Assembly: GCA_030390025.1 (NCBI GenBank) | Contig: CM059431.1 | Location: 44,330,001-44,394,000, forward strand | Length of the DNA stretch: 64,000 nt | Direction: 5' to 3' | Source of the DNA: Squalus acanthias | Taxonomy: Eukaryota | Shown here: piece by piece, positions 1,430 to 43,971 of the stretch | How positions within the stretch are numbered: position 1 is the stretch's first letter | Layout: every line of letters starts with the position of its first letter | Position numbers and translations under genes: made by a program | The notes under the pieces: model-generated | What the model saw: the letters and a program-made list of their open reading frames with translations, nothing else | The model's database searches: none | Told to the model about the DNA's origin: nothing

Positions 1430-3086
1430 TGACATTGGATGATGAGATTGGTAATGAGGTAAGTGCATTTAAAATAAGAGAGGATATATTAAATAAACTA
1501 ATCAAACTCAAAGAGGATAAAACCCCTGGTCTGGATGGATGGCACCCACGCATTTTAAAAGAATTTAGGGAAGAGATAGCAGAGGCATTACTACACATAT
1601 TTAATAATGTTAGAAAAAGATGTAGTGCCAGAGGACTGGCGGATAGCTAACGTAATACCTATATGTAAGAAGGGGGATAGAACATGTCCAGGGAATTATA
1701 GACCAGTCAGCTTAACATCGGTGGGAGGAAAAATAATGGAATCCCTACTAAAGGAGAAAATAGAAGAACGTCTAGAAACCAAAAACATAGTAATGAATAG
1801 TCAGCATGGATTTCAAAAGGGAAAGTCTTGCTTGACCAACCTCATTGAATTTTTTGAAGAGGTAACAGAGTAGAAAGTGGTAATGCAGTAGATGCCATTT
1901 ATCTAGATTTTCAAAAGGCCTTCGATAAGGTACCCCATAATAGATCGATGAACAAGGTCAGAGAATGCGGAGTCAGGGGACAAATATCAGAATGGATAGC
2001 TAACTGGCTTCAAGACAGAAAGCAGAGAGTAGGGGTAAAAAGTAGCTATTCACATGGCAGAAGGTGGGTAGTGGTGTTCCACAAGGATCAGTGCTGGGAG
2101 CACTGTTGTTCACAATTTATATTAACGATTTAGACTTTGGAATCAAAAACACAATTTCTCAATTTGCGGATGACACCAAATTGGGGGGGATAGTCAATAC
2201 TGAGGAGGACTGCAACAAATTACAGGAGGACATTAATAAACTTGCAGAATGGGCAAATAATTGGCAAATGAAGTTCAACACTAACAAATGTGAGGTATTA
2301 CATTTTGGTAGGAAGAATAGGGAGGTCACTTATTACTTGGAGGGTGCGAGTCTAGGTGGGGTAGAGGAACAAAGGGATCTCGGAGTACAAATACACAAAT
2401 CACTAAAAGTTGCGACACAGGCTAGCAAGGCCATAAAAAAAGCAAACCAAGCACATGGGTTTATTTCTAGAGGGATAGAATTGAAATGTAGGGAAGTTAT
2501 GCTAAACCTGTATCGAACCTTGGTTAGACCACACTTAGAGTACTGCGTACAGTTCTGGTCGCCATATTATAAAAAGGATATAGAGGCACTGGAAAGGGTG
2601 CAGAGAAGATTTACAAAGATGATACCAGAAATACGAGGGTATACAGATCAGGAAAGGATGAACAGGCTGGATCTCTTTTCTCTTGAAAAAAGAATGCTGA
2701 GGGGTGACCTAGTAGAGGTCTTTAAAATTATGAAAGGTTTTGATAGAGTGGATACAGAGAGAATGTTTCCACTTGTGGGGAAGAGCATAACTAGAGGCCA
2801 TCAACATAAGATAGTCATCAAGAAATCCAATAGGGAATTCAGAAGAAACTTCTTTACCCAGAGTGGTGAGAATGTGGAACTCGCTACCACAGAGTGATTG
2901 AAGCGAAAAGTATAGATGCATTTAAGGGGAGGCTGGACAAACATATGAGGGAGAAGGGAATAGAGGGTTATGCTGATAGATTTAGATGAGGAAAGACGGT
3001 TAAAGGGTCGAGTGGAGCATAAACGCCGTCATGGACTGGTTGGGCCGAATGGCCTGTTCCTGTGCCATATATCCTATGTAATCCTC
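1430..3086 (+). mobile_element. CR1 LINE, 5'-truncated ORF2 (RT) plus 3' UTR
   Basis: ORFs 1607-1873 and 2064-2897 (NYRPVSLTS, QHGF, YINDL..FADDTKL, HLEYCVQFW) with frameshifts; ends in a short (ATCCTATGT)-like tail. Confidence 0.95.
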
Positions 3087-3699
3087 TTAAAAAGGCAATA
3101 TTGAGCCAAAATAGTGAGGTAATCATGCCAGTTTATAAATCATTGGTGTGACCGCACTTAGAATACTGTGTACAGTTCTGGTCGCCATAGTAGAAAAAGG
3201 ATATTGCAGATATTGAAAGGATACAGAAGAGAGTAACCAGCATGATTGAGGGGATGAAGGGATTGGATTATGAGGAGCGATTAAGTAAATTGGACATGTT
3301 CTCACTGGAAAAGAGAAGGTTGAGAGGTGATACAAATGCTGTCTTTAGGATTCTAAAGGAAAGAGATAATGTAGACCACGACGAACTGTTTCACATTGTG
3401 CAGTAGAACCAGAAGACACGGACTGTGCTGGAAGTGCAGTAAATTCAAAACTAATCTGCAGAAACATTGGCCCTGATATTAATCTGAAGGCGGCTTCCGA
3501 CCGGAGGAGTGGAATTGCGTGGGCGAAACTCGGAAGTCAACTCAGCGGGTCGGAATCTGTGATCACAAATGCATCGAAGCAACTAATTTTGACTTCCGTG
3601 TTTCGCGTCTCCAAGCTGCACAGGGGCGTGATGTGCACCCACATGACGCAATCTCAGCTCTATTTAAACGGACAATGTACAAATGAAAATTGGAGGTGT

Positions 3700-5530
3700 T
3701 CACAATTGATGGTGCACATCGAGCAAGGGCAGACTCAAATGACGCATGCCTGGAATTACTGCTGGGTGCAGTCAGGAGCAGGAGGGACATACTTTTCCCC
3801 AGCAATGGGAGGAAGAAACCTGCGGCTCTCACCAAGAAGGCATGGTCGGAGGTGGCTGAGGAGGTGAGCAGCAGGAACATTATGCCCCGGCCTTGGATGC
3901 AATGTAGGAAGCAGTTTAATGACCTAATCAGGTCAGGAAAAGTGAGTACATTTGCTGATTCACCTACATCCTGTGGTTTAAGCCCCCGCCCCCTTTCACT
4001 CTGTCTTGCCAAGTATACTCCATCACATCACTCCTCACACCCACTCAACTTTGAGCAGCTCCTAGAATTCACTTTCTATGCACTTCATCACCTCCCCATT
4101 TGTCCATCTACTGTTGCCACTCACACCAATCCTTATGCAATGTAAAGCATCTGCCCCATAGTCACCCTCACCGAATGCACTACATCCACCTGACCTTCAC
4201 TCACTCACAGGTCTATTTTTTGCCCCATGTAGAAAAGGGTGTAAAATGCAAGTCAGAGGGCGAGGACTGGCAGTGGCCCACCACAATAGTCCAGCTAAAA
4301 GATGCAGAGGAGGCCCTGGAGATATGTGCCATATTTGCGTCCCTCTCAATCAGAGATGGAAAGGGAACTTGCAGATAGCTGGTGGCAGAATTGCAAATAT
4401 ATCCGACACACATATGCTGATTTTATTTCATCAATGACAGAACTATGAGAAGACGGAGTATGATGATTGTCAAGATAGTGACTTTGCCACGACTAAATCA
4501 TATCCCTTTTGTCTTCCAGGGATTTCACGCGTTCAGCAAGTGTCGCAGGACATGCATGATGACGATTCCTTAGAAGACCTCATTCTTTCTGAGGGTGCAC
4601 CATCACAGGATGTACAGCCATGCACCAGCGCAAATACTCGCACTTCAGTGGGTCCACTTAAGCAGTTAGTTTCACTTGGTGATTCACAACTTGCAAGTGA
4701 GCACGAGCAGACACAGGGACAGCTGTGGAGAGTCCACATCGGGCCTATAACTATAAAAATAATTATCTGTATATTATATAACCACTGCACCAGTTTTGTA
4801 GAATGCTAACAATTTTTTTTATACAGAATACCTCTGCATCTTTTTTGCATTTCCTGCTTCTATTTCCAACTACTGATAGTGTAAGGGCAACTGAACACTT
4901 TGTTTTGTAGTTGCCAAATACTGTATTCATTTAACAGTTCTTAGTGAGACACTGTGTACTACAGACACAATTATGTAGAACAAGTGTAGTGTTTGCATGA
5001 AATGTTATCTGGATATTACAGTCAGTGTGCTAGAAAACTCCCCATCCTCTCCAAGCTCTGGCACAGATGCTGAACCCCGGGGGCTATCATTGAGAAGGAG
5101 AATGCTAGAGGTGTATCAGCAACTTAGCCAGATACTGACAGGTGTGCAACGCACACTCTCCACAATAGCGGAAAGGATAGAGGAGTCCAACTCGATCACT
5201 AATGGATTGGTGATGCAGGGAATTGTGAGAATGTCTGCCATGGAGAGAGTGGCCGTCTCCATGGAGCTTCGAGCATGGCTCTCAAATGAGTCCAAGTTTA
5301 TTGCCGTGCAGACTTTGATGCCAACTTGCCTGCCGTCTTAAACAGGATGACAGGTACCTTATCCGTGGCCTTACAACATGTCACTGATCTCCACCAAGCT
5401 GGTCTGCAGCAGAGTGGTAGGAGTGATGTGGCGCTGGCCCAGGAGAGGGATGATGGCAATAGGATACATGGAAGTGAGAATGCCACTCAAAGCACTCTCA
5501 GTCCTCACCCGTTGCCTCAGCCAGTACCCG
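3700..5530 (+). pseudogene. Harbinger Myb/SANT-like DNA-binding protein (NAIF1/MSANTD-like), spliced, degraded
   Basis: LELLLGAVRSRRDILFP..KKAWSEVAEEVSS..PRPWMQCRKQFNDL ends at a GTGAGT donor (3942). A downstream exon with RTGSGPP starts at ~4233 and a coiled-coil region lies at 5060-5420; stops and frameshifts present. Confidence 0.8.
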
Positions 5531-5897
5531 TGATTTGTTGATTAGATGTTAAACTGCAGCTTTCTTTACAATGTCGGTTTTCTTTGTCTGCATCGTTGTC
5601 GCTTGAAATATATGTACTTATTCAACGTGCTAATGATCGTAAGACTGAATTATATCTGTGACTAATAATTGTGTTTTGTAGGTAACAGAGCATGGGAAAA
5701 GTCAGTATGAATCCAGTATGAGGTGGTCTTGGTGGTGCCTCCTGTGTGAAGCATAAGGACTGTCAGGTACACTGACTAACGCGAGTAAGGTGACACAGTG
5801 GAAGTGGGAACCAAAAGTGATGGGAGACGGAATGAGTAGGAAGGAGGAAACAAGCTCCTACTCGATCTCTAGTCTGAACACCCGCGAGGGATTGTTC

Positions 5898-7585
5898 CTT
5901 AGAATCATAGAATGGTTACAGCACGGAAGAAAGCCATTCGGCCCGTCGAGCCCATGCCGGCTCTCTGCAAGAGCACTTCAGCTAGTCCCACTCCCCCGCC
6001 CTTTCCCCGGAGCCCTGCAAATCCTTTTCCTTCAGGTACTTATCCAACTCCCTTTTGAAAGCCGTGATTGAGTCTGCCTCCACCACCCTTTCAGGCATTG
6101 CATTCCAGATCCTAACCACTCGTTGAGTAAAAAGGTTTTTCCTCATGTCGCCTTTGGTTTTTCTGCCAATCACCTTAAATCTGTGTCCTCTGGTTCTCGA
6201 TCCTTCTGCCAATGGGAACAGTTTATCCCTATCTATTCTGTCTAGACCACTCATGATTTTGAACACCTCTATCAAATCTCCTCTCAATCTTCTCTGTTCT
6301 CAGGAGAACAACCCCAGCTTCTCCAGTCTATCCATGTAACTGAAATCCCTCATCCCTGGAATCATTCTCGTAAATCCTTTCTGCACCCTCTCTAAGGCCT
6401 TAACCATCCTTCCCAAAGTGCGGTGCCCAGAATTGGACACAATACTCCAGTTGAGGCCGAACCAGTGTTTTACAAGTTCATCATAATTTCCACGCTTTTG
6501 TACTCTATACCTCTATTTATGAAGCCCAGGATCCTGTAAGCTTTTTTAACTGCTTTCTTAACCTGCCCTGCCACCTTCAACAAATTGTGCACATATACCC
6601 CATGGTCTCTCTGTTCATGCACCCCCTTTAGGATTGTACCCTTTAGTTTAGAATTCCTCTCCTCATTCTTTCTACCAAAATGTATCACTTCGCACTTTTC
6701 TGCGTTAAATTTCATCTGCCACGTGTCCACCCATTTCACCAGTCTGTCTATGTCCTCTTGAAGTCTATCACTATCCTCCTCACTGTTCACTATACTTCCA
6801 AGTTTTGTGTCATCTGCAAATTTTGAAATTGTGCCCTGTACACCCAAGTCATTAATATATATCAAGAAAAGCAGTGGTCCCAGAACTGACCCCTGGGGAA
6901 CACCACTGTATACCTTCCTCCAGTCCGAAAAACAACCGTTCACCACTACTCTCTGTTTCCTGTCACTTAGCCAGTTTTGTATCCATGCTGCCACAGTCCC
7001 TTTTATTCCATGGGCTTCAACTTTGCTGGCAAGCCTATTATGTGGCACTTTGTCGAACACGTTTTGGAAATCCATGTACACTACGCCAACCGCATTGCCC
7101 TCATCAACCCTCTCTGTTACCTCATCAAAAAACTCGATCAAGTTGGTTAAACATGATTTGCCTTTAACAAATCCGTGCTGGCTTTCCTTAATTAATCCAT
7201 ACTTGTCCAAGTGACTGTTAATTTTGTCCCTGATTATCATTTCTAATAGCTTCTGCACTACCAAGGTTAAACTGAGTGGCCTGTAGTTGCTGGGTTTATC
7301 TTTACACCCTTTTTTGAAAAAGGGTGTAACATTTGCAATTCACCAGTCCTCTGGTACCACCCCCGTTTCGAAGGAGGATTGGAAGATTATGGCCAGTACC
7401 TCTGCGATTTCTTCCTTCACTTCCCTCAGCGTCCTAGTATGCATCCTATCTGGTCTTGGTGACTTATCTACTTTAAGTACAGCCAGCCTTTCTAGTACCT
7501 CCTGTTTATCAATTATTATCCCATCCAGCATCTCCTCTACCTCCTCCTTCACTATGTCTATGGCAGCATCTTCTTCCTTGGTGAT
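5898..7585 (-). mobile_element. CR1 LINE, 5'-truncated
   Basis: ORFs 7340-7600, 6470-7264 and 5982-6287 (QHGFVKGKSCLTNL, YINDL, FADDTKL, RVVRIWN); 3' tail at ~5900. Confidence 0.95.
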
Positions 7586-7659
7586 TCCTAGAATGTACAA
7601 TGTTGCCCTGACTATGATGACAACGTACTTGATTGAGGAAGGAACCAGTGTGTGTGTAA

Positions 7660-8219
7660 AATAATCAGGGAAAAGGAACCTACTGTGTCACTACTACTGC
7701 AACTAATATGCTTTACGGGTCTAACAGGACCTGTCCCATTTATCACCCCAGTTTCTGCTTCACACCACATCTACCCATAACCATCAATCAAGATGTTTTA
7801 CTCAATATCAAAACCTATGCTCAAGTGAAACTGACAGTAAATGAGATACTTTAGTATGAGCTGCACAATTATGTGGCACAATTCGGGTACAACATTCCCC
7901 TGTTGTCTGAGGGCTTCAGTGAGCTCGTGATGCGACTGAACTCCTCCCTAAAGCATTTTTATGTTTTGGAGCAAGACAACTCGAGAATAGATATTGAAAT
8001 TGACAGCATAGGGGGCGATTCACACTGGTGGGCTATCGGACTTAATATATCAGCACACCCTTGGGTTTTGTATTATTTCCACACGCTCTGGTAGTTCTCC
8101 AGCTTGTAATGGTAGTGTATTTGATGTATGTAATCCACTTAGTAAAAACTATGTTAAGGAGGCTGAAGCGCTGGACTGGACTATTGGAGGAGGCTCGACT
8201 CTGGAAGGACCTTAAATAA
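7660..8219 (+). pseudogene. Decayed viral envelope/fusion-glycoprotein-like ORF (C-terminal half)
   Basis: Frame 1 reads GKGTYCVTTTATNMLYGSNRTCPIYHPSFCFTP..FSELVMRLNSSLKHFYVLEQDNSRIDIEIDSIGGDSHWWAIGLNIS with one internal stop. After a frameshift at ~8070 come the hydrophobic VLFPHALVVLQLVMVVYLMYVIHLV and a basic tail RRLKRW..KDLK*. Confidence 0.55.
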
Positions 8220-8622
8220 AATGAAAAAAGAGAACTCTTCTCCACTGGCGCATAAGCCAATTGTGTACTTATGCCTATGACTAACCAGCACTAACAAATT
8301 AATTGAGCACACCGAAAGAGAAGATCTGAGACGAAGTAGAGAAGACCTCAGGTGGGGTAAGATCAAGAAAGATAGAAGAAGAAACAGAGGATACCCCAGG
8401 CAGAATTGGAACACTGGAACAGGGAATTGAATTTGAGTGAGGGGTTGGAAGACTGCTCCTCCCCCTCAAGTGTGTGGACTGTGAAAATACTGGGAAAGTC
8501 TCCACTTCACATTCACTTACTAACTAACCTGAAATAGACACACGGATTGAACCAATAATCTAGCGTTTGTACGGTTGGTAGAGGGTCAAAAATGAGGTGT
8601 CGAATAGAGTTTTCTCCCTCTT

Positions 8623-8760
8623 AAGGTGGGGAAGTCTGTTAGAAATTAGGAGTACCTAAATGTATATGGTTACGCAAATTAAATTGTGGCGCAAATAATA
8701 CTGTGTTTAGATGATTGTATTAGAGCTTGAGATAACATGTCTTCAGACTAGTATTAGAGT
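8623..8760 (+). mobile_element. Putative polypurine tract plus start of a 3' LTR (truncated)
   Basis: Purine-rich AAGGTGGGGAAG followed closely by TGTTAG at 8637, ~400 bp downstream of the env-like ORF. Confidence 0.4.
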
Positions 8761-9030
8761 AGCATGCTCTTCCTTGGTGAAGACAGATGCAAAGTACTCA
8801 TTTAGTACCTCAGCCATACCCTCTGCCTCCATGCATAGGTCTCCTTTTTGGTCCCTAGTTGACTTTTGGATTACCTTTTATGTTGGCTGCCATTCTATTC
8901 TCATACCCTCTCTTTGCCCCTCTTATTTTCTTTTTCACTTCTCCTCTGACCTTTCTTTATATATCCTGATTCTCAGATGTATTTGCAACCTGACATCTGT
9001 CATATGCGCTCTTTTTCTGTTTCATCATAT
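8760..9030 (-). mobile_element. CR1 ORF2 fragment (upstream of RT)
   Basis: Minus strand reads MEAEGMAEVLNEYFASVFTKEE, typical of CR1 ORF2. Confidence 0.75.
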
Positions 9031-9032
9031 TG

Positions 9033-9240
9033 GCTATCTGCCACCACCTGACGTGACAACCTCAGCCTGCGGAAGCATTGCTCTTCTGAGAAGTCAAAGA
9101 AGCTGAGCCTCTGTCTGTAAACCCTGTGACGTGGGTAGTGCCTCCAGCGACCTCGGACCCTCTCCTGTGACCTCCCTCCTGTGCACATACTGATCCCACC
9201 ACAGCGCGTCATCGCTGCCGTGGATGGTGATGGTCTTCCT
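9033..9240 (-). pseudogene. Harbinger transposase N-terminal remnant
   Basis: RHYPRHRVYRQRLSFFD and SEEQCFRRLRLSRQVVAD (across a frameshift) match the HARBI1-type N-terminus. Confidence 0.75.
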
Positions 9241-11237
9241 CTTCTGATGTGCTGTCAAATGCATCCAAAGTCTCTCCCATCCTGATCTTGTCAGTTTGAA
9301 AGGGTATCCACACAAGAACTCTCTGCCAGACATTTGCCAGAGGGAACTGAGACACCAGCTGTAATAAGTGTGCTTTTATTCAAATGGGGCAATCACAAGT
9401 TAAAATAACCACCTGAACAGATAAAATTTAAACCTAAATAAAATTCAATGTAAAAAGACCTCATTAACGTCTCCTAAGGACATTAATACAGCAATAAGTA
9501 CCCGCCACTTGCACTAATTAAAGCCTCGACTTCGGCGAGGAGGTTACTTGCAGGCATCCAAACACGCCTTCGTTAAACCCGGGAGTCGGTGCGTTGGAGC
9601 CGGGTTGCGGTCGTGATGTCAAATTCAGTTATAGTAACTACCTACCCACCCTCAAACCACCTTTTCTTGGGGGTTAAAATTCCCCCCATTATTTCAGTGA
9701 ACGAGTGGTAAATCTATGGAACATGCTCCCCAGGGAGAAGTCGGAAGCAGATAGTATTGATTCATTCAAATTAAGTCTTTCGTCTCTGCTGGGTCACATG
9801 ACTGAGGTGCTGAACAGTAACAATGTGGTTGCTTGGAGGAAATAGGGAAATAAAAATACACAGATGGGTCATTGCAGACCATTTCACTGCCACTTACACC
9901 ATAATATGATTCTGAGGTTGCCACTGCTGGTAGATCTAAAGTCAGCAGGTAGTAAATGTAAAGCAATGTAAATAAGCTCTTTAGAAAAAGTTACAGTTTG
10001 TTACTTTATTGCACATTGCTTCAATGTGGATTCATTTGACAGCTATAGCCATTATTGCAGGAAGCAGTTCTGCAATTGAAAATTAGTATTAGCTGGATTA
10101 ATAGCACCAATGGAATACGACTAGCGTGAAATTGCCTGTCAGCCCCTTAAGGTAGGGAATAATGTATTAAATGGAGTGTGGTGAGGGATGCAGCAAAGAA
10201 TGTTTTTCCTCTGTACTCCTCCTTAGGATATGGTCAGTTCCAGGCCGCCTGCTTCAACTGGAAGAGCACAGGCTGTGAATATTTCCTTCACCTCCACAGT
10301 TCGATAATTAGCTGACAAAAGATGCATCAGTTTTGGGCTTCATCCATTAACCACACAATGGACTAACTCCATCATCTATGTCGATATTTATCGTTATATC
10401 TTTCAGTGCCATTCTTAATGTTTTCCACCCAGTCTACCCCATATCATTCATAGTTGTTTTTGCATGAATAAAATTTGAATTATCCAATAATTTGAATTAA
10501 GAATTTAAATAACACAGAAAAGTGGGAAATTAATTCTAAAAATTGGGCAACTTTGAATTAAGAGGATTGGACCATATTTGTTGTCAGAACTCATCGTAAA
10601 TGTATGTTTTGCAAAAATAAGTAATGAATTTAACAACAGTAAACTGTCAGCACCTGAAAAAGCAGAACAACAACTTTTGGAATCTAGTTTCACAGTGGTA
10701 CTAGTTATCTAGTACTACAGAAAAGTATGTTAGAGGCTGTCATTTTGCTTTGACTCATCATTTTTTGGAGTATATTGTAATGGATCTGATGATTTATAAA
10801 TTACTTTAGAGCCAATTAGATCAGAGTCATTTTATAGCCATGATTTTTAGCCAACACTGTAAAATTCATCAAATTGCCTGCTGTTATCATACTATTCATC
10901 CGGTTCCAAAAATACCAGGCTATTTCTCAACTCCCTAATTACCCAATATAACCTTGCTGTTAAGAGATAGGTTGGTGATATCAGTTCTGTGACACTGACA
11001 ATATTTTTAAGGGGCTTTGCATAAAAGAAGCAGTTGGATTAAGAGACTGTTTCCTTGCCTTGGGGATGTTGGCTTTAAGGAGTTTCTACTTCATTACAGC
11101 CAGATACCCACACATTTTCACATCTAAAATAGGTATTTCAACAGTAATGATTGTTTGATAACCATTATTGTTGGACAATGAGATCAAATACAAAGAAAGA
11201 TGTATATGAATAACAAAAAATAAAGTGATAGAAGTAC

Positions 11238-21738: not shown

Positions 21739-23275
21739 TTACATAGGATTACATAGGATATACGGCACAGAAACAGGCCACTCAGCCTAACCAGTCCATG
21801 TCGGTGTTTATGCTCCACTCGAGCCTCCTCCCGTCTTTCCTCATCTAAATCTATCAGCGTCACCCTCTATTCCCTTCTCCCTCATATGTTTGTCCAGCCT
21901 CCCCTTAAATGCATCTATACTATTCGCTTCAACCACTCGCTGTGGTAGCGAGTTCCACATTCTCACCACTATTTGGGTAAAGAAGTTTCTTCTGAATTCC
22001 CTATTGGATTTCTTGGTGACTATCTTATATTGATGGCCTCTAGTTATGCCCTTCCCACAAGTGGAAACATTCTCTCTGTATCCACTCTATCAAAACCTTT
22101 CATAATTTTATAGACCTCTACTAGGTCACCCCTCAGCCTTCTTTTTTCAAGAAAAAAGAGACCCAGCCTGTTCATCCTTTCCTGATATTTATACCCTCGC
22201 ATTTCTGGTATCATCCTTGTAAATCTTCTCTGCACCCTCTCCAGTGCCTCTATATCCTTGTTATAATACGGCGACCAGAACTGCACGCAGTACTCTAAGT
22301 GTGGTCTAACCAAGGTTCGATACAGGTTTAGCATAACTTCCCTACTTTTCAATTCTATCCCTCTAGAAATAAACCCATGTGCTTGGTTTGCATTTTTAAT
22401 GGCCTTGTTAGCCTGTGGCGCAACTTTTAGTGATTTGTGTATTTGTACTCTGAGATCCCTTTGTTCCTCTACCCCACCTAGACTCGCACCCTCCAAGTGA
22501 TAAGTGACATCCCTATTCTTCCTACCAAAATGTAATACCTCACATTTGTCCGTGTTGAACTTCATTTGCCAATTATTTGCCCATTCTGCAAGTTTATTAA
22601 TGTCCTCCTGTAATTTGTTGCAGTCCTCCTCAGTATTGACTATCCCCTCCAATTTGGTATCATCTGCAAATTTAGAAATTGTGTTTTTGATTCCAAAGTC
22701 TAAATCATTAATGTAAATTGTGAACAGCAGTGGTCCCAGCACTGATCCTTGTGGAACACCACTACCCACCTTCTGCCACTGTGAATAGCTACCCTTACTC
22801 TCTGCTTTCTGTCTTGAAGTCAGCTCGCAATCCATTGCTACTTGTCCCCTGACTCTGCATTCTCTGACCTTATTTATTAGTTTATTATGGGGTACCTTAT
22901 CGAAGGCCTTTTGAAAATCTAGATAAATTACATCTACTGCATTACCATTGTCTACTCTCTCTGTTACCTCTTCAAAAAATTCAATAAGGTTGGTCAAGCA
23001 AGATTTTTCCTTTTGAAATCCATGCTGACTATTCATTATTATACTTTTTGTTTCTAGATGTTCTTCTATTCTCTCCTTTAGTAGGAATTCCATTATTTTT
23101 CTGCCACTGATGTTAAGCTGACTGGTCTAGAATTCCCTGGACATGTTCTATCCCCCTTCTTAAATATTGGTATTACGTTAGCTATCCGCCAGTCCTCTGG
23201 CACTACACCTTTTTCTAATGAATTATTAAATATGTGTAATAATGCCTCTGCGATCTCTTCCCTCGATTCTTTTAA
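21739..23275 (-). mobile_element. CR1 LINE, 5'-truncated, same subfamily as 1430-3086
   Basis: 349-aa RT ORF at 22044-23093; 22-bp TSD ACACATCTGGGATTGGTATGGT at 21717-21738 and 23276-23297. Confidence 0.96.
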
Positions 23276-23523
23276 ACACATCTGGGATTGGTATGGTGCG
23301 AATGATCAGGACTATAGCAAGTTGAATCATGCAGTACAACTGAGGCATTGTGTTATGGAATAGACTGCCACCTAATAGTGTAACTGCTGACTCAGCTTAA
23401 GTATTCATAACATAATTGGATCAGTCCTAATTCAGTAGATAATAAAGGAATTCATATCCAGATACAGTTTGCACATTAAAAATAATAACCATGGATAGAA
23501 TGCCAACAAAGAATTCTACTTAC

Positions 23524-33318: not shown

Positions 33319-36012
33319 GGTAAGTAATGTCCCAGACTCCTCCATCACCATCCCTGGGTATGTCCTGTCCCACCGGTAGGACAGACCCACCAGGGGTGGC
33401 GGCACAGTGGTATACAGTCGGGAGGGAGTGGCCCTGGGAGTCCTCAGCATTGACTCCGGACCCCATGAAGTCTCATGGCTTCAGGTCAGGCATGGGCAAG
33501 GAAACCTCCTGCTGATTACCACCTACCGCCCTCCCTCAGCTGATGAATCAGTACTCCTCCATGTTGAACACCACGTGGAAGAAGCATTGAGAGTAGCAAG
33601 GGCACAGAATGTACTCTAGGTGGGGGACTTCAATGTTCATCACCAAGAGTGGCTCGGTAGCACCACTGTTGGCAAAGCTGGCCGAGTCCTGAAGGACATA
33701 GCTGCCAGTCTGGGCCTGCAACAAGTGCTGAGAGAACCAACATGAGGGAAAAACCTACTGGACCTCGTCCTCACCAATCTACCTGTCGCAGATACATCTG
33801 TCCATGACAGCATTGGTAGCAGTGACCACCGCACAGTCATTGTGGAGACAAAGTCCCGTCTTCACACTGAGTACACCCTCCATCGTGTTGTGTGGCATTA
33901 CCACCGTGCTAAATGGGATAGATTCAGAACAGATCTAGCAGCTTAAAACTGGGCATCCATGAGGCACAGTGGGCCATCAGCAGCAGCAGAATTGTATTCC
34001 ACCACAATCTGTAACCTCATGGCCTCATGGCATATCCCTCACTCTACCCGATTACCATCAAGCCAACCCTGGTTCAATAAGGAGTGTAGAAGAGCATGCC
34101 AGGAGTAGCACCAGGCATACCTAAAAATGCAGTGCCAACCTGGGGAATCTGTAATACATTCCTACAAGAGCTAAGTGATCCCACAATCAACGGATCAGAT
34201 CAAAGCTCTGCAGTCCTGCCACATCCAGTCGTGAATGGTGGTGGACCATTAAACAACTAACGGGAGGGGGAGGCTCCATTAATATCCCCATCCTCAATGA
34301 TGGTGGAGCTCAGCACGTGAGTGCAAAGTCAAAGCTGAAGCATTTGCAACCATCTTCAGCCAGAAATGCCGAGTGGATGATCCATATCGGCCTCCTCCTG
34401 AGGTCCCCACCATCACAGAAGCCAGTCTTCAGCCAATTCGATTCACTCCACGTGATATCAAGAAACAGATGAGCGCACTGGATACAGCAAAGGATGTTGT
34501 GCTGAAGACTTGTGCTCCAGAACTAGCCGCGCCTCTAGCCAAGCTGTTGCAGTACAGCTATAACACTGGCATTTATCTGACAATGTGGAAAACTGCCCAG
34601 GTATGTCCTGTCCACAAAAAGCAGGACAAATCCAATCCGGCCAATTCCCGCCCCATCAGTCTACTCTCAATCATCAGCAAACTGATGGAAGGTGTCGTCA
34701 ACAGTGATATCAAGCAGCACTTACTCACCAATAACCTGCTCACTGATGCCCAGTTTGGATTCCGCCAGGACCACTCGGCTCCAGACCTCATTACAGCCTT
34801 GGTCCAAACATGGACAAAAGAGCTGAATTCCAGAGGTGAGGCGAGAGTGACTACCCTTGACATCAAGTCAGCATTTGACCGAGTGTGGCATCAAGGAGCC
34901 CTAGTAAAACTGAAGTCAATGGGAATCGGGGGGAAAACTCTCCACTGGCTGGAGTCATACCTAGCGCAAAGGAAGATGGTTGTGGTTGTTGGAGGTCAAT
35001 CATCACAGCCCCAGGACATCACTGCACGAGTTCCTCAGGGCAGTGTCCTAGGCCCAACCATCTTCAGCTGCTTCATCAATGACCTTCCCTCCATCATAAG
35101 GTCAGAAGTGTGGATGTTCGCTGATGATTGCACAGTGTTCAGTGCCATTTGCAACTCCTCAGATAATGAAGCAGTCCATGCCCGCATGCAGCAAGACCTG
35201 GACGATATTCAGGCTTGGTGATATTCAATGGCAGGTAACATTCGCGCCACACAAGTGCCAGGCAATGACTATCTCCAACAAGCGAGCGTCTAACCACCGC
35301 CCCTTGACATTCAACGGCATTAACATCACCGAATCCCCCACCTTCAACATCCTGGGGGTCACCACTGACCAGAAACTTAACTGGACCAGTCACATAAATA
35401 CTGTGGCAACAAGAGCAGGTCAGAAGCTAGGAAATCATGCGGCGAGTGTCTCACCTCCTGACTACCCAAATTCTTTCCACCATCTACAAGGCACAAGTTA
35501 GGAGTGTGATGGAATACTCTCCACTTGCCTGCATGAGTGCAGCTCCAACAACACTCAAGAAGCTCGACACCATCCAGGACAAAGCAGCCCGCTTGATTGG
35601 CACCCCTTAAACATTCACTCCCTCCACCACCGGCGTACCGTGGCTGCCGTGTGTACCATCTAGAAGATGCACTGCAGCAACTCGCCAAGGCTTCTTCAAC
35701 AGCACCTCCCAAATCCACGACTTCTACCACCTAGAAGGACATGGGCAGCAGGCGCATGGGAACACCACCACCTCCAAGTTCCCCTCCAAGTCACACACCA
35801 TTCTGACTTGGAAGTATATCACCATTCCTTCATTGTCGCTGGGTCAAAATCCTGGAACTCCCTCACTAACAGCACTGTGGGAGTACCTTCACCACATGGA
35901 CTGCAGCGGTTCTAGAAGGCAGCTCAGCACCACCTTCTCAAGGGCAACTAGGGATGGGCAATAAATGCTGGCCTTGCCAGCGATGCCCATATCCCATGAA
36001 CGAATTTAAAAA
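33319..36012 (+). mobile_element. Non-LTR retrotransposon (APE + RT, CR1/L2/Jockey superclade, distinct from the local CR1), decayed
   Basis: Endonuclease motifs YRPPS, GDFN, LDL, SDH; RT motifs RPISLLS, QFGFR, DIKSAFDRVWH, PQGSVLGP, FADD; A-rich tail; AAGCTT TSD. Confidence 0.9.
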
Positions 36013-36314
36013 AAGCTTCCCACACGATCTCTGTGTCGAAAGGTTCGGCTTTTCCGACGCGCAATTGAAATCAACGCAAGTTAACGGGGAATCCCTAACG
36101 CGAGCTGCTGTGACGTCAACAAGCTGTCTAAGCAGCCAATCACAATGCAGAATTCCCACAGACAGCGAACCAGGAAGTGGGTAAGCTCCTTTGATTTAGC
36201 ACTCCACTTCCTTCTTGGAGCGCAAACAGCGAATTTTTCAAAAGTTTGAAATCGTTAACACCTGGAGCGAAATTTTCAAACTTTTAAATGTTTGCGCCCC
36301 AAATGGGAGAAAAA

Positions 36315-42249: not shown

Positions 42250-43971
42250 AGGCTGAAGCATTTGCAACCATCTTCAGCCAGAAGTGCCGAATGGATGATC
42301 CATATCGACCTCCTCCTGAGGTCCCCACCATCACAGAAGCCAGTCTTCAGCCAATTCGATTCACTCCACATGATATCAAGAAACAGATGAGCGCACTGGA
42401 TACAGCAAAGGCTGTGGGCCCTGACAACATCCCGACTGTTGTGCTGAAGACTTGTGCTCCAGAACTAGCCGCGCCTCTAGCCAAGCTGTTCCAGTACAGC
42501 TACAACACTGGCATCTACCTGATAATGTGGAAAACTGCCCAGATAGGTCCTGTCCACAAAAAGCAGGACAAATCCAATCTGGCCAATTACCGCCCCATCA
42601 GTCTACTCTCAATCATCAGCAATGTGATGGAAGGTGTCGTCGACAATGCTATCAAGCAGCACTTACTCACAAATAACCTGCTCACCGATGCTCAGTTTGG
42701 GTTCCGCCAGGACAACTCGGCTCCAGACCTCATTACAGCCTTGGTTCAAACAAGGACAAAAGAGTGGACAGGACCTATCTGGGTGAGGTGACAGTGACTG
42801 CCCTTGACATCAAGTCAGCATTTGACCGAGTGTGGCATCAAGGAGCTCTAGTAAAATTGAAGTCAATGGGAATCGGGGGGAAAAGTCTCCACTGGCTGGA
42901 GTCATACCTAGCACAAAGGAAGATGGTTGTGGTGGTTGGCAGTCAATCATCACAGCCCCAGGACATTGCTGCAGGAGTTCCTCAGGGCAGTGTCCTAGGC
43001 CTAACCATCTTCAGCTGCTTCATCAATGACCTTCCCTCTATCATAAGGTCAGAAGTGGGGATGTTTGCTGATGATTGCACAGTGTTCTGTTCCATTTGCA
43101 ACTCCTCAGAAAATGAAGCAGTCCATGCCCGCATGCAGCAAGACCTGGACGACATTCAGGCTTGGGCTGATGTGTGGCGTGAAAGTTACTTGCCACTTAA
43201 GTGCCAGGCAATGACTATCTCCAACAAGAGAGAGTCTAACTACCGCCCCTTGACATTGAATGCCATTACCATCGCCGAATCCCCCACCATCAACATCTTG
43301 GGGGTTACCGTTGACCAGAAACTTAACTGGACCAACCACATAAATACTGTGGCAACAAGAGCAGATCAGAGGCTGGGTATTCTGTGGCGAGTGTCTGACC
43401 TCCTGACTCCCCAAAGCCTTTCCACCATCTACAAGCTACAAGTCAGGAGTGTGATGGAATACTCTCCACTTGCCTGGATGATTGCAACTCCAACAACACT
43501 CAAGAAGCTCGACACCATCCAGGACAAAGCAGCTCGCTTGATCGGCACCCCATCCACCACCTTAAACATTCACTCCCTCCACCACCAGCGCACCATGGCT
43601 GCAGTGTGCACCATCTACAAAATGCACTGCAGCAACTCGCCAAGGCTTCTTCAGCAGTACCTTCCAAACCCACGACCTCTACCACCTAGAAGGACAAGGG
43701 CAGCAGGCGCATGGGAACACCATCACATGCAAGATCCCCTCCAAGTTACACACCATCCTGACTTGGAAATATCTCACTGTTCCTTCATCATCGCTGAGTC
43801 AAAATCCTGGAACTCCCTCCCTAACAGCACTGTGAGACTACCTTCACCACAAGGACTGCAGCAGTTCATGAAGGCGGCTCACCACCACCTTCTCAAGGGC
43901 AATTGGGGATGGGCAATAAATGCTGGCTTTGCCAGCGCTGCCCACATCCTGGAACTAATAAATTAAAAAAA
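42250..43971 (+). mobile_element. Non-LTR retrotransposon RT plus 3' end, same family as 33319-36012
   Basis: ORFs 42291-42791 and 42764-43966 are near-identical to 34373-35990; A-rich tail. Confidence 0.92.

Follow-up and report, generated by a model that had tools for sequence, protein, structure and literature searches.

What is the envelope-like fragment that lies on the plus strand at 7663-8219 of the window (the whole 64-kb stretch of Squalus acanthias DNA that was analysed), and what kind of element brought it there? A first-pass annotation had proposed a broken gene of about 185 residues, interrupted by one stop (7852) and one frameshift (near 8070), and inspection of the open reading frames agrees with that reconstruction. 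The frame that opens at 7663 runs to 8092, with the stop falling at 7852. A different frame, closed by the terminator at 8217-8219, holds the hydrophobic segment and the basic tail, and the two frames together amount to about 184 codons, with the frameshift falling within 8066-8079. The individual features that had been listed could also be located in the sequence. The frame from 7663 contains the Cys-spaced stretch (Cys motif at 7669-7761), three sequons (NRT at 7723, NSS at 7939 and NIS at 8044), a helical stalk at about 7915-8010 and a Trp-rich stretch, HWW..HPW, at 8026-8064. The second frame contributes the transmembrane segment at 8088-8144, where 19-residue hydropathy peaks at 2.49, and a basic tail of about 24 residues that runs to 8216. 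Read towards the C-terminus, a Cys-rich domain is followed by the stalk helix, the membrane-proximal stretch, the transmembrane anchor and the tail, which is the order found in F-type class I proteins. The class I architecture put forward by the first-pass annotation holds at the level of this order; the heptad pattern, which was part of the same claim, was reached by 266 of 2000 shuffles and is by itself not beyond chance.

The fragment has clear protein relatives. A phmmer search with the window frame against 1.84 billion representative proteins returned 15 matches at E<=0.001 (best E 1.9e-19), all 27-38% identical to the window. A profile built from 11 of these relatives, with the window sequence excluded from the build, scored the first env frame at 130.7 bits, and shuffled sequences at 6.9 bits or less (n=500; 414 scored rows reported); given these scores and the 15 relatives, the likeness reflects homology and not chance. 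The same profile also picks the second frame, at 8061-8192, through its transmembrane columns, and since it matches both frames, these are parts of one broken gene. In the alignment, the relatives share a G-x-G-x-Y-C...C...F-C motif of invariant type, likewise present in the window, together with the helical stalk, a W-W stretch and the anchor. Within the 64-kb window, the relatives' sequences and the profile gave this single env match and no other. A search of the window sequence against Rfam returned a single match at chance level. Judged on its sequence, the region 7663-8219 is a real but dead fossil: a broken 3' remnant of an envelope gene, not a working one.

All the relatives that could be named are from vertebrates, three sharks and Xenopus, although the sensitivity of the naming searches was low, with two proteins each in three cases. 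P0005 is a protein of Chiloscyllium punctatum (739 aa) and P0017 its counterpart in Scyliorhinus torazame (754 aa); the two proteins contain an R-x-x-R site and carry an anchor at the C-terminus, and R-x-x-R sites are also present in P0006 and P0016. P0015 is a Xenopus tropicalis protein, and P0002 has kin in Heptranchias perlo at 87% and 75% identity. Among viral contigs, a tblastn search with P0002 found three stretches encoding a relative, and none was found with P0005, P0006, P0015, P0016 or a 19-nt pattern from the window. The only metagenome match was discarded as chance, being a likeness of 23 nt and nothing further. In an Env tree of 18 rows (the window included, P0016 omitted for its length), the window fell in no supported group and was at most 39% identical to any row; it forms a separate branch of the Env family. 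In the gene models of P0003, P0013, P0018 and P0019, the Env pieces are fused to cadherin, F-box, zinc-finger or TMED10-like sequence; these fusions are either annotation chimeras or exonised pieces of endogenous retroviruses (ERVs). No earlier description of this Env family turned up in the literature searched; closed journals, Repbase/Dfam or bioRxiv supplements may have one.

To which class of fusion protein the intact gene belonged can be approached through its best-preserved relatives. A language-model search of the Atlas with residues 200-710 of P0005, restricted to named clusters, placed Fusion glycoprotein F0 at the top (0.94, 209 of 256 features), with Fusion_gly, Baculo_F and Gypsy Env clusters as runners-up (Baculo_F at 0.92 and Gypsy Env at 0.91 in rows 3 and 6); the unfiltered search with the whole of P0005 reached just 0.82, to an unnamed cluster. 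The first-pass annotation had looked to a profile match with viral glycoproteins as a check. One relative gives such a match, P0013, whose residues 364-489 match Baculo_F under the Pfam cut-off (E 0.0011) in a region that overlaps the part homologous to the window, whereas Pfam returned 0 matches for the three frames of the insert that holds the fragment. None of the 15 relatives passed the Pfam cut-off for a fusion protein, and sequence searches of PDB with the window frame, the profile and P0017 gave no significant fusion-protein match, only chance or coiled-coil ones. The intact form of the window env is hence predicted, from the language-model score of a relative 33% identical to it and from the one sub-cut-off Pfam match, to be an F-type fusion protein of class I. 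A furin-type cleavage site, also predicted from the intact relative, would lie upstream of the retained part; this region, where a fusion peptide and HR1 would come after the site, is missing from the window. The likeness to the F proteins of paramyxo- and pneumoviruses (PF00523), to baculovirus F (PF12259) and to errantivirus Env consists of this predicted fold class and the weak Baculo_F match; the window itself has no direct sequence match to any of them, and its context is retroelement-like. Gamma-type Env, as treated in the available text of bioRxiv 10.1101/2021.11.23.469661, is also a class I Env of anamniote ERVs, cartilaginous-fish ones included, but it is defined by an immunosuppressive domain and a CX6CC motif; neither occurs in the fragment or in the relatives' alignment, and the relatives have no such Pfam match.

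We consider it probable that 7663-8219 is the broken 3' env end of a many-copy family, likely a cartilaginous-fish endogenous retrovirus, whose intact form encoded an F-type class I fusion protein. The phmmer relatives, the Atlas score of P0005, an integrase linked to one relative and the divergent copies described below all favour the F-like viral envelope of a retrovirus-like element, probably of cartilaginous fish, that the first-pass annotation had supposed. The integrase piece precedes the Env piece in P0019, a gene model of H. perlo, and is the sole link to pol that was found; P0019 is one automatically built gene model, in which a host gene is fused as well. This integrase matches the solved structures of foamy virus (E 7e-9) and HIV (E 1.5e-8) nearly equally, and the Pfam rve model at E 0.0025. 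Searches of viral contigs and metagenomes found no reverse transcriptase of this Env family.

Which retroviral lineage carried the env can be narrowed by comparison. The first-pass annotation had pointed to lokiretroviruses, and a true lokiretrovirus (lokiortervirus) env, extending that group to cartilaginous fish, is the alternative that survives best, unlikely as we hold it to be. In its favour, the Loki Env is described as resembling paramyxo- and pneumovirus F, as the relative P0005 does in the Atlas, and it is an F-like Env on a vertebrate LTR element with an R-x-x-R site, a coiled coil and a C-terminal anchor; X. tropicalis, host of P0015, also contains a Loki element (the Loki data from the accessible part of PMC7947760). 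The likeness accordingly stands at the level of an F-type fold. It does not extend to the family's signature: among the 8 of 23 Loki Env entries in the supplement that were compared by eye (two of them partial), none had G-x-G-x-Y-C...C...F-C, W-W...H-P-W or the long N-terminal extension (PMC7947760). The Loki screen, in the same portion of that source, was positive in 0 of 3 genomes of Orectolobiformes and 0 of 1 of Carcharhiniformes, the hosts of P0005 and P0017 among them. The P0019 integrase does look Loki-like by eye, but the stretch is widely conserved and so does not discriminate between lineages. The Loki supplement as available (PMC7947760), where line breaks may conceal matches, gave none to any of four 12-nt patterns for P0015. 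As the Loki entries lack the signature of this family, the window env would be F-like in its working but probably of another lineage, and the carrier is likely not a lokiretrovirus.

The best lead for the carrier is instead the SnRV clade, with a foamy-like lineage next. The SnRV clade has fish, amphibians, reptiles and birds as hosts and accessory frames behind env (available text of PMC12193657), and SnRV-like ERVs of lineage I are reported from the elephant shark (PMC4422223, as far as accessible); the SnRV Env tail, however, has 136 residues in the former source, against about 24 in the window env. A literature search for a link between SnRV Env and paramyxovirus F found nothing. Foamy Env is structurally F-like according to the accessible text of PMC11468914, and foamy-like ERVs are present in chimaera and carry 3' accessory genes (from the parts at hand of PMC5210030 and PMC5512871), but neither the relatives nor the window nor the profile matched the Pfam foamy Env model or a solved foamy Env. 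The elephant-shark foamy-like elements are described from pol only in the portion of PMC5512871 available.

The envelope could also have belonged to an F-type Ty3/gypsy errantivirus or another LTR retrotransposon rather than to a retrovirus, which we rate as somewhat less likely than a lokiretroviral origin. The Baculo_F and Gypsy Env rows of the Atlas search would fit such a source, and F-type env is widespread on Ty3/gypsy elements of invertebrates; the same source, in its accessible part, reports that intact vertebrate homologues of the invertebrate elements were not found (PMC13524379), and every named relative of the window env is from a vertebrate.

The structure of the locus provides further evidence on the nature of the element. 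The fragment sits in an insert of 1176 nt (7585-8760) that interrupts a LINE on the minus strand, and contigs of other copies of this LINE skip about 1196 nt at the site. On the left, the 3' part of the LINE with its reverse transcriptase occupies 5897-7584, in the place of the middle of env, as seen from the Pfam match to RVT_1 (6473-7339, minus strand, E 1.9e-31) and from its likeness to LINE copies elsewhere in the window. On the right, the same LINE resumes from 7584 with its next upstream piece, at 8761-9025, as traced by its minus-strand frames and by the loose ends and joints of contigs. We take the LINE in both pieces to be of the CR1 type. A 20-nt direct repeat of LINE sequence bounds the insert, its left copy (7565-7584, given on the plus strand) being 90% identical to 8761-8780.

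Besides the env fragment, several plus-strand pieces appear to belong to the same element. Upstream of the LINE, 5532-5896 (left edge approximate; recognised from contigs of run X19 and from its frames) contains a branch-point-like and splice-acceptor-like site ending at 5681, followed by a frame with an ATG at 5718 and one stop. We infer that this piece is likely the 5' end of env, although the frame at 5718 gave no significant protein-level match to the relatives. An Ig-like reading of the frame at 5682-5896 was tested and found no support. Immediately before the fragment, 7585-7662 is a decayed upstream continuation of the element, to which three listed contigs align from 7589; no frame in it matches the relatives' profile. 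Directly behind env, a short Arg/Lys-rich frame with an ATG and one internal stop (8221-8430), covered in all four aligned runs, is possibly a decayed 3' accessory gene, a tentative assignment; Pfam gave no match for 8281-8427. The last piece, 8623-8760, starts with a purine-rich tract (8623-8634), has a TG at 8637 and extends to the end of the insert. Its sequence is likely that of a polypurine tract and the start of a truncated 3' LTR, a reading that is weak because four further purine-rich clusters occur in 8220-8760 and there is no second LTR. The insert ends without a poly(A), and no gag, reverse transcriptase or paired LTR linked to env was seen in the 64-kb window. Of the terminal features typical of an endogenous retrovirus (paired LTRs, primer-binding site, polypurine tract and short target duplication), the purine tract with its TG at 8623-8638 was the only one noted.

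Sequencing runs show that this copy is one of many. Sequence from the insert, amounting to no more than 31% of its words, occurs in 20 of the 21 listed runs, with no RNA run named among them; contigs were aligned over 7450-8900 in four of these 20 (organism labels A, B, A and H; two DNA runs and two guessed to be RNA). Depth was present in 30, 30, 28 and 26 of 30 bins in the four runs. On the insert, summed depth in the two DNA runs reached 1e4-1e5 and dipped at 7597-7645 and 8136-8233; on the LINE flanks it reached 1e5-1e6. These values are not copy numbers. The insert was covered by many divergent contigs in all four runs, under three organism labels, and therefore belongs to a repeat family. 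The listed contigs of other copies stop at 7589 or 7679 rather than entering the LINE flanks. The aligned contigs do not share the stop at 7852, the single-base indels that set this copy apart from others are concentrated at 8066-8079, and one contig of run X1 is identical to the window over 8104-8266.

Across 7646-7694, depth climbs about 15-25-fold. The DNA contig X1-4 aligns only from 7679, and in three X19 contigs the letters immediately before 7679 match, by eye, window positions 5708-5737, a junction which ties 5532-5896 to the same element. Positions 5738 and 7679 start with nearly the same ten letters. These three contigs of one run and the one DNA contig suggest a common form of the family in which most of env, from about 5738 to 7679, is deleted. 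For other contigs the alignment starts at 7589, and one of them appears to extend 229 letters further upstream in non-LINE sequence. We also observed that other copies skip 45, 56, 113 or 51 letters, at 7735-7853 and 8326-8378, and such differing skips point to several deletion subfamilies.

The LINE surroundings raise one further possibility, namely that the mRNA of a Mononegavirales F protein was copied into the genome by LINE machinery, leaving a non-retroviral endogenous viral element. The position of env within a LINE with a 20-nt duplication fits this origin, and the top Atlas cluster for P0005 consists mostly of Negarnaviricota. We nevertheless regard it as very improbable: no named viral F is among the relatives, the copies are many and divergent under three organism labels, one relative is linked to an integrase, and the insert has splice-acceptor-like and polypurine-tract-like sites and lacks a poly(A) at its end. 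The last alternative, a pseudogene of a cellular membrane protein, might draw on the intact relative conserved in two shark orders and on the host domains carried by several phmmer matches, but it is largely refuted and scarcely credible, since those domains fall outside the matched Env stretch in chimeric gene models, the family has many copies, and the score of the intact relative is that of a viral fusion protein, while its identity to the window env stands at only about 32-33%.

That intact relative deserves attention of its own. P0005 and P0017 are 86% identical over 734 residues, in clusters of sizes 1 and 2, and their sequences make them a candidate co-opted F-type env gene maintained across two shark orders. 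With at most 39% identity to any library protein, the sequence at this locus represents an old and separate branch of an F-type Env family that has been little described. The locus further points to an env-deleted derivative with many copies, and to an intact, conserved relative that may be a host gene. How retroviral envelopes originated has yet to be settled. Lokiretroviruses, foamy viruses and invertebrate errantiviruses are known to have an F-type Env; were sharks and frogs to harbour another diverse family of this type, that would speak for an ancient and wide distribution of F-type Env in vertebrate retroviruses, and for the gamma and beta types not being the sole rule. More tentatively, and with rather less conviction than for the retroviral reading of the fragment itself, we propose that sharks and amphibians may carry an undescribed non-Loki retroviral lineage with an F-type Env, of which the old shark branch seen here would have reached very high copy numbers as non-autonomous elements that have lost env, and another shark branch would survive in two orders as an intact host gene, making it a candidate for an F-type equivalent of syncytin.

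The present state of the locus could have arisen as follows. The ancestral virus would have expressed Env from a spliced RNA, using the acceptor-like site at 5681, and the protein would have been a furin-cleaved, trimeric F-type fusion protein. In class I fusion, the stalk helix zips against an N-terminal helix, drawing the membranes together; the retained fragment would represent the stalk and anchor end of such a protein, comprising the last part of the Cys-rich domain together with the stalk helix, membrane-proximal stretch, anchor and tail. Once in the germ line, the family would have multiplied, a large part of it in the form that lacks the stretch from about 5738 to 7679, lost at the 10-nt near-repeat. 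As the env-deleted form cannot make Env, it would need helpers to move. The copy in the window would have inserted into Harbinger-like DNA and then been cut by the LINE insertion, with the middle of env removed or replaced. The order element-LINE-element-LINE, with its 20-nt overlap, suggests that this was one complex insertion with a template jump.

The Harbinger-like DNA also bears on the setting of the fragment, which the first-pass annotation had placed inside a DNA transposon. This placement does not hold, because the direct flanks are LINE and a DNA transposon can be no more than the nest's outer layer; no clear terminal inverted repeat, as a fragment carried as cargo might show, was found at the locus. 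The outer layer includes a Myb/SANT-like frame on the plus strand (3687-4142; Pfam Myb_DNA-bind_5, E 4.8e-7), which is presumably the remnant of a Harbinger-type DNA transposon. On the minus strand, the frame at 9033-9254 is transposase-like in its translation, without a Pfam match, and we liken it to the N-terminus of a Harbinger-type transposase. The stretches with these two frames, 3470-5531 (plus) and 9029-9690 (minus), face each other across the nest, and it is possible that they derive from a common element. A 24-nt inverted match (79%) between 5858-5881 and 8739-8762, adjoining both LINE junctions, may be due to chance. Elsewhere in the window there are two pairs of LINE copies, 1554-3085 with 21745-23276 (93%) and 34334-36014 with 42252-43971 (89%), all with RVT_1, which are ordinary repeats.
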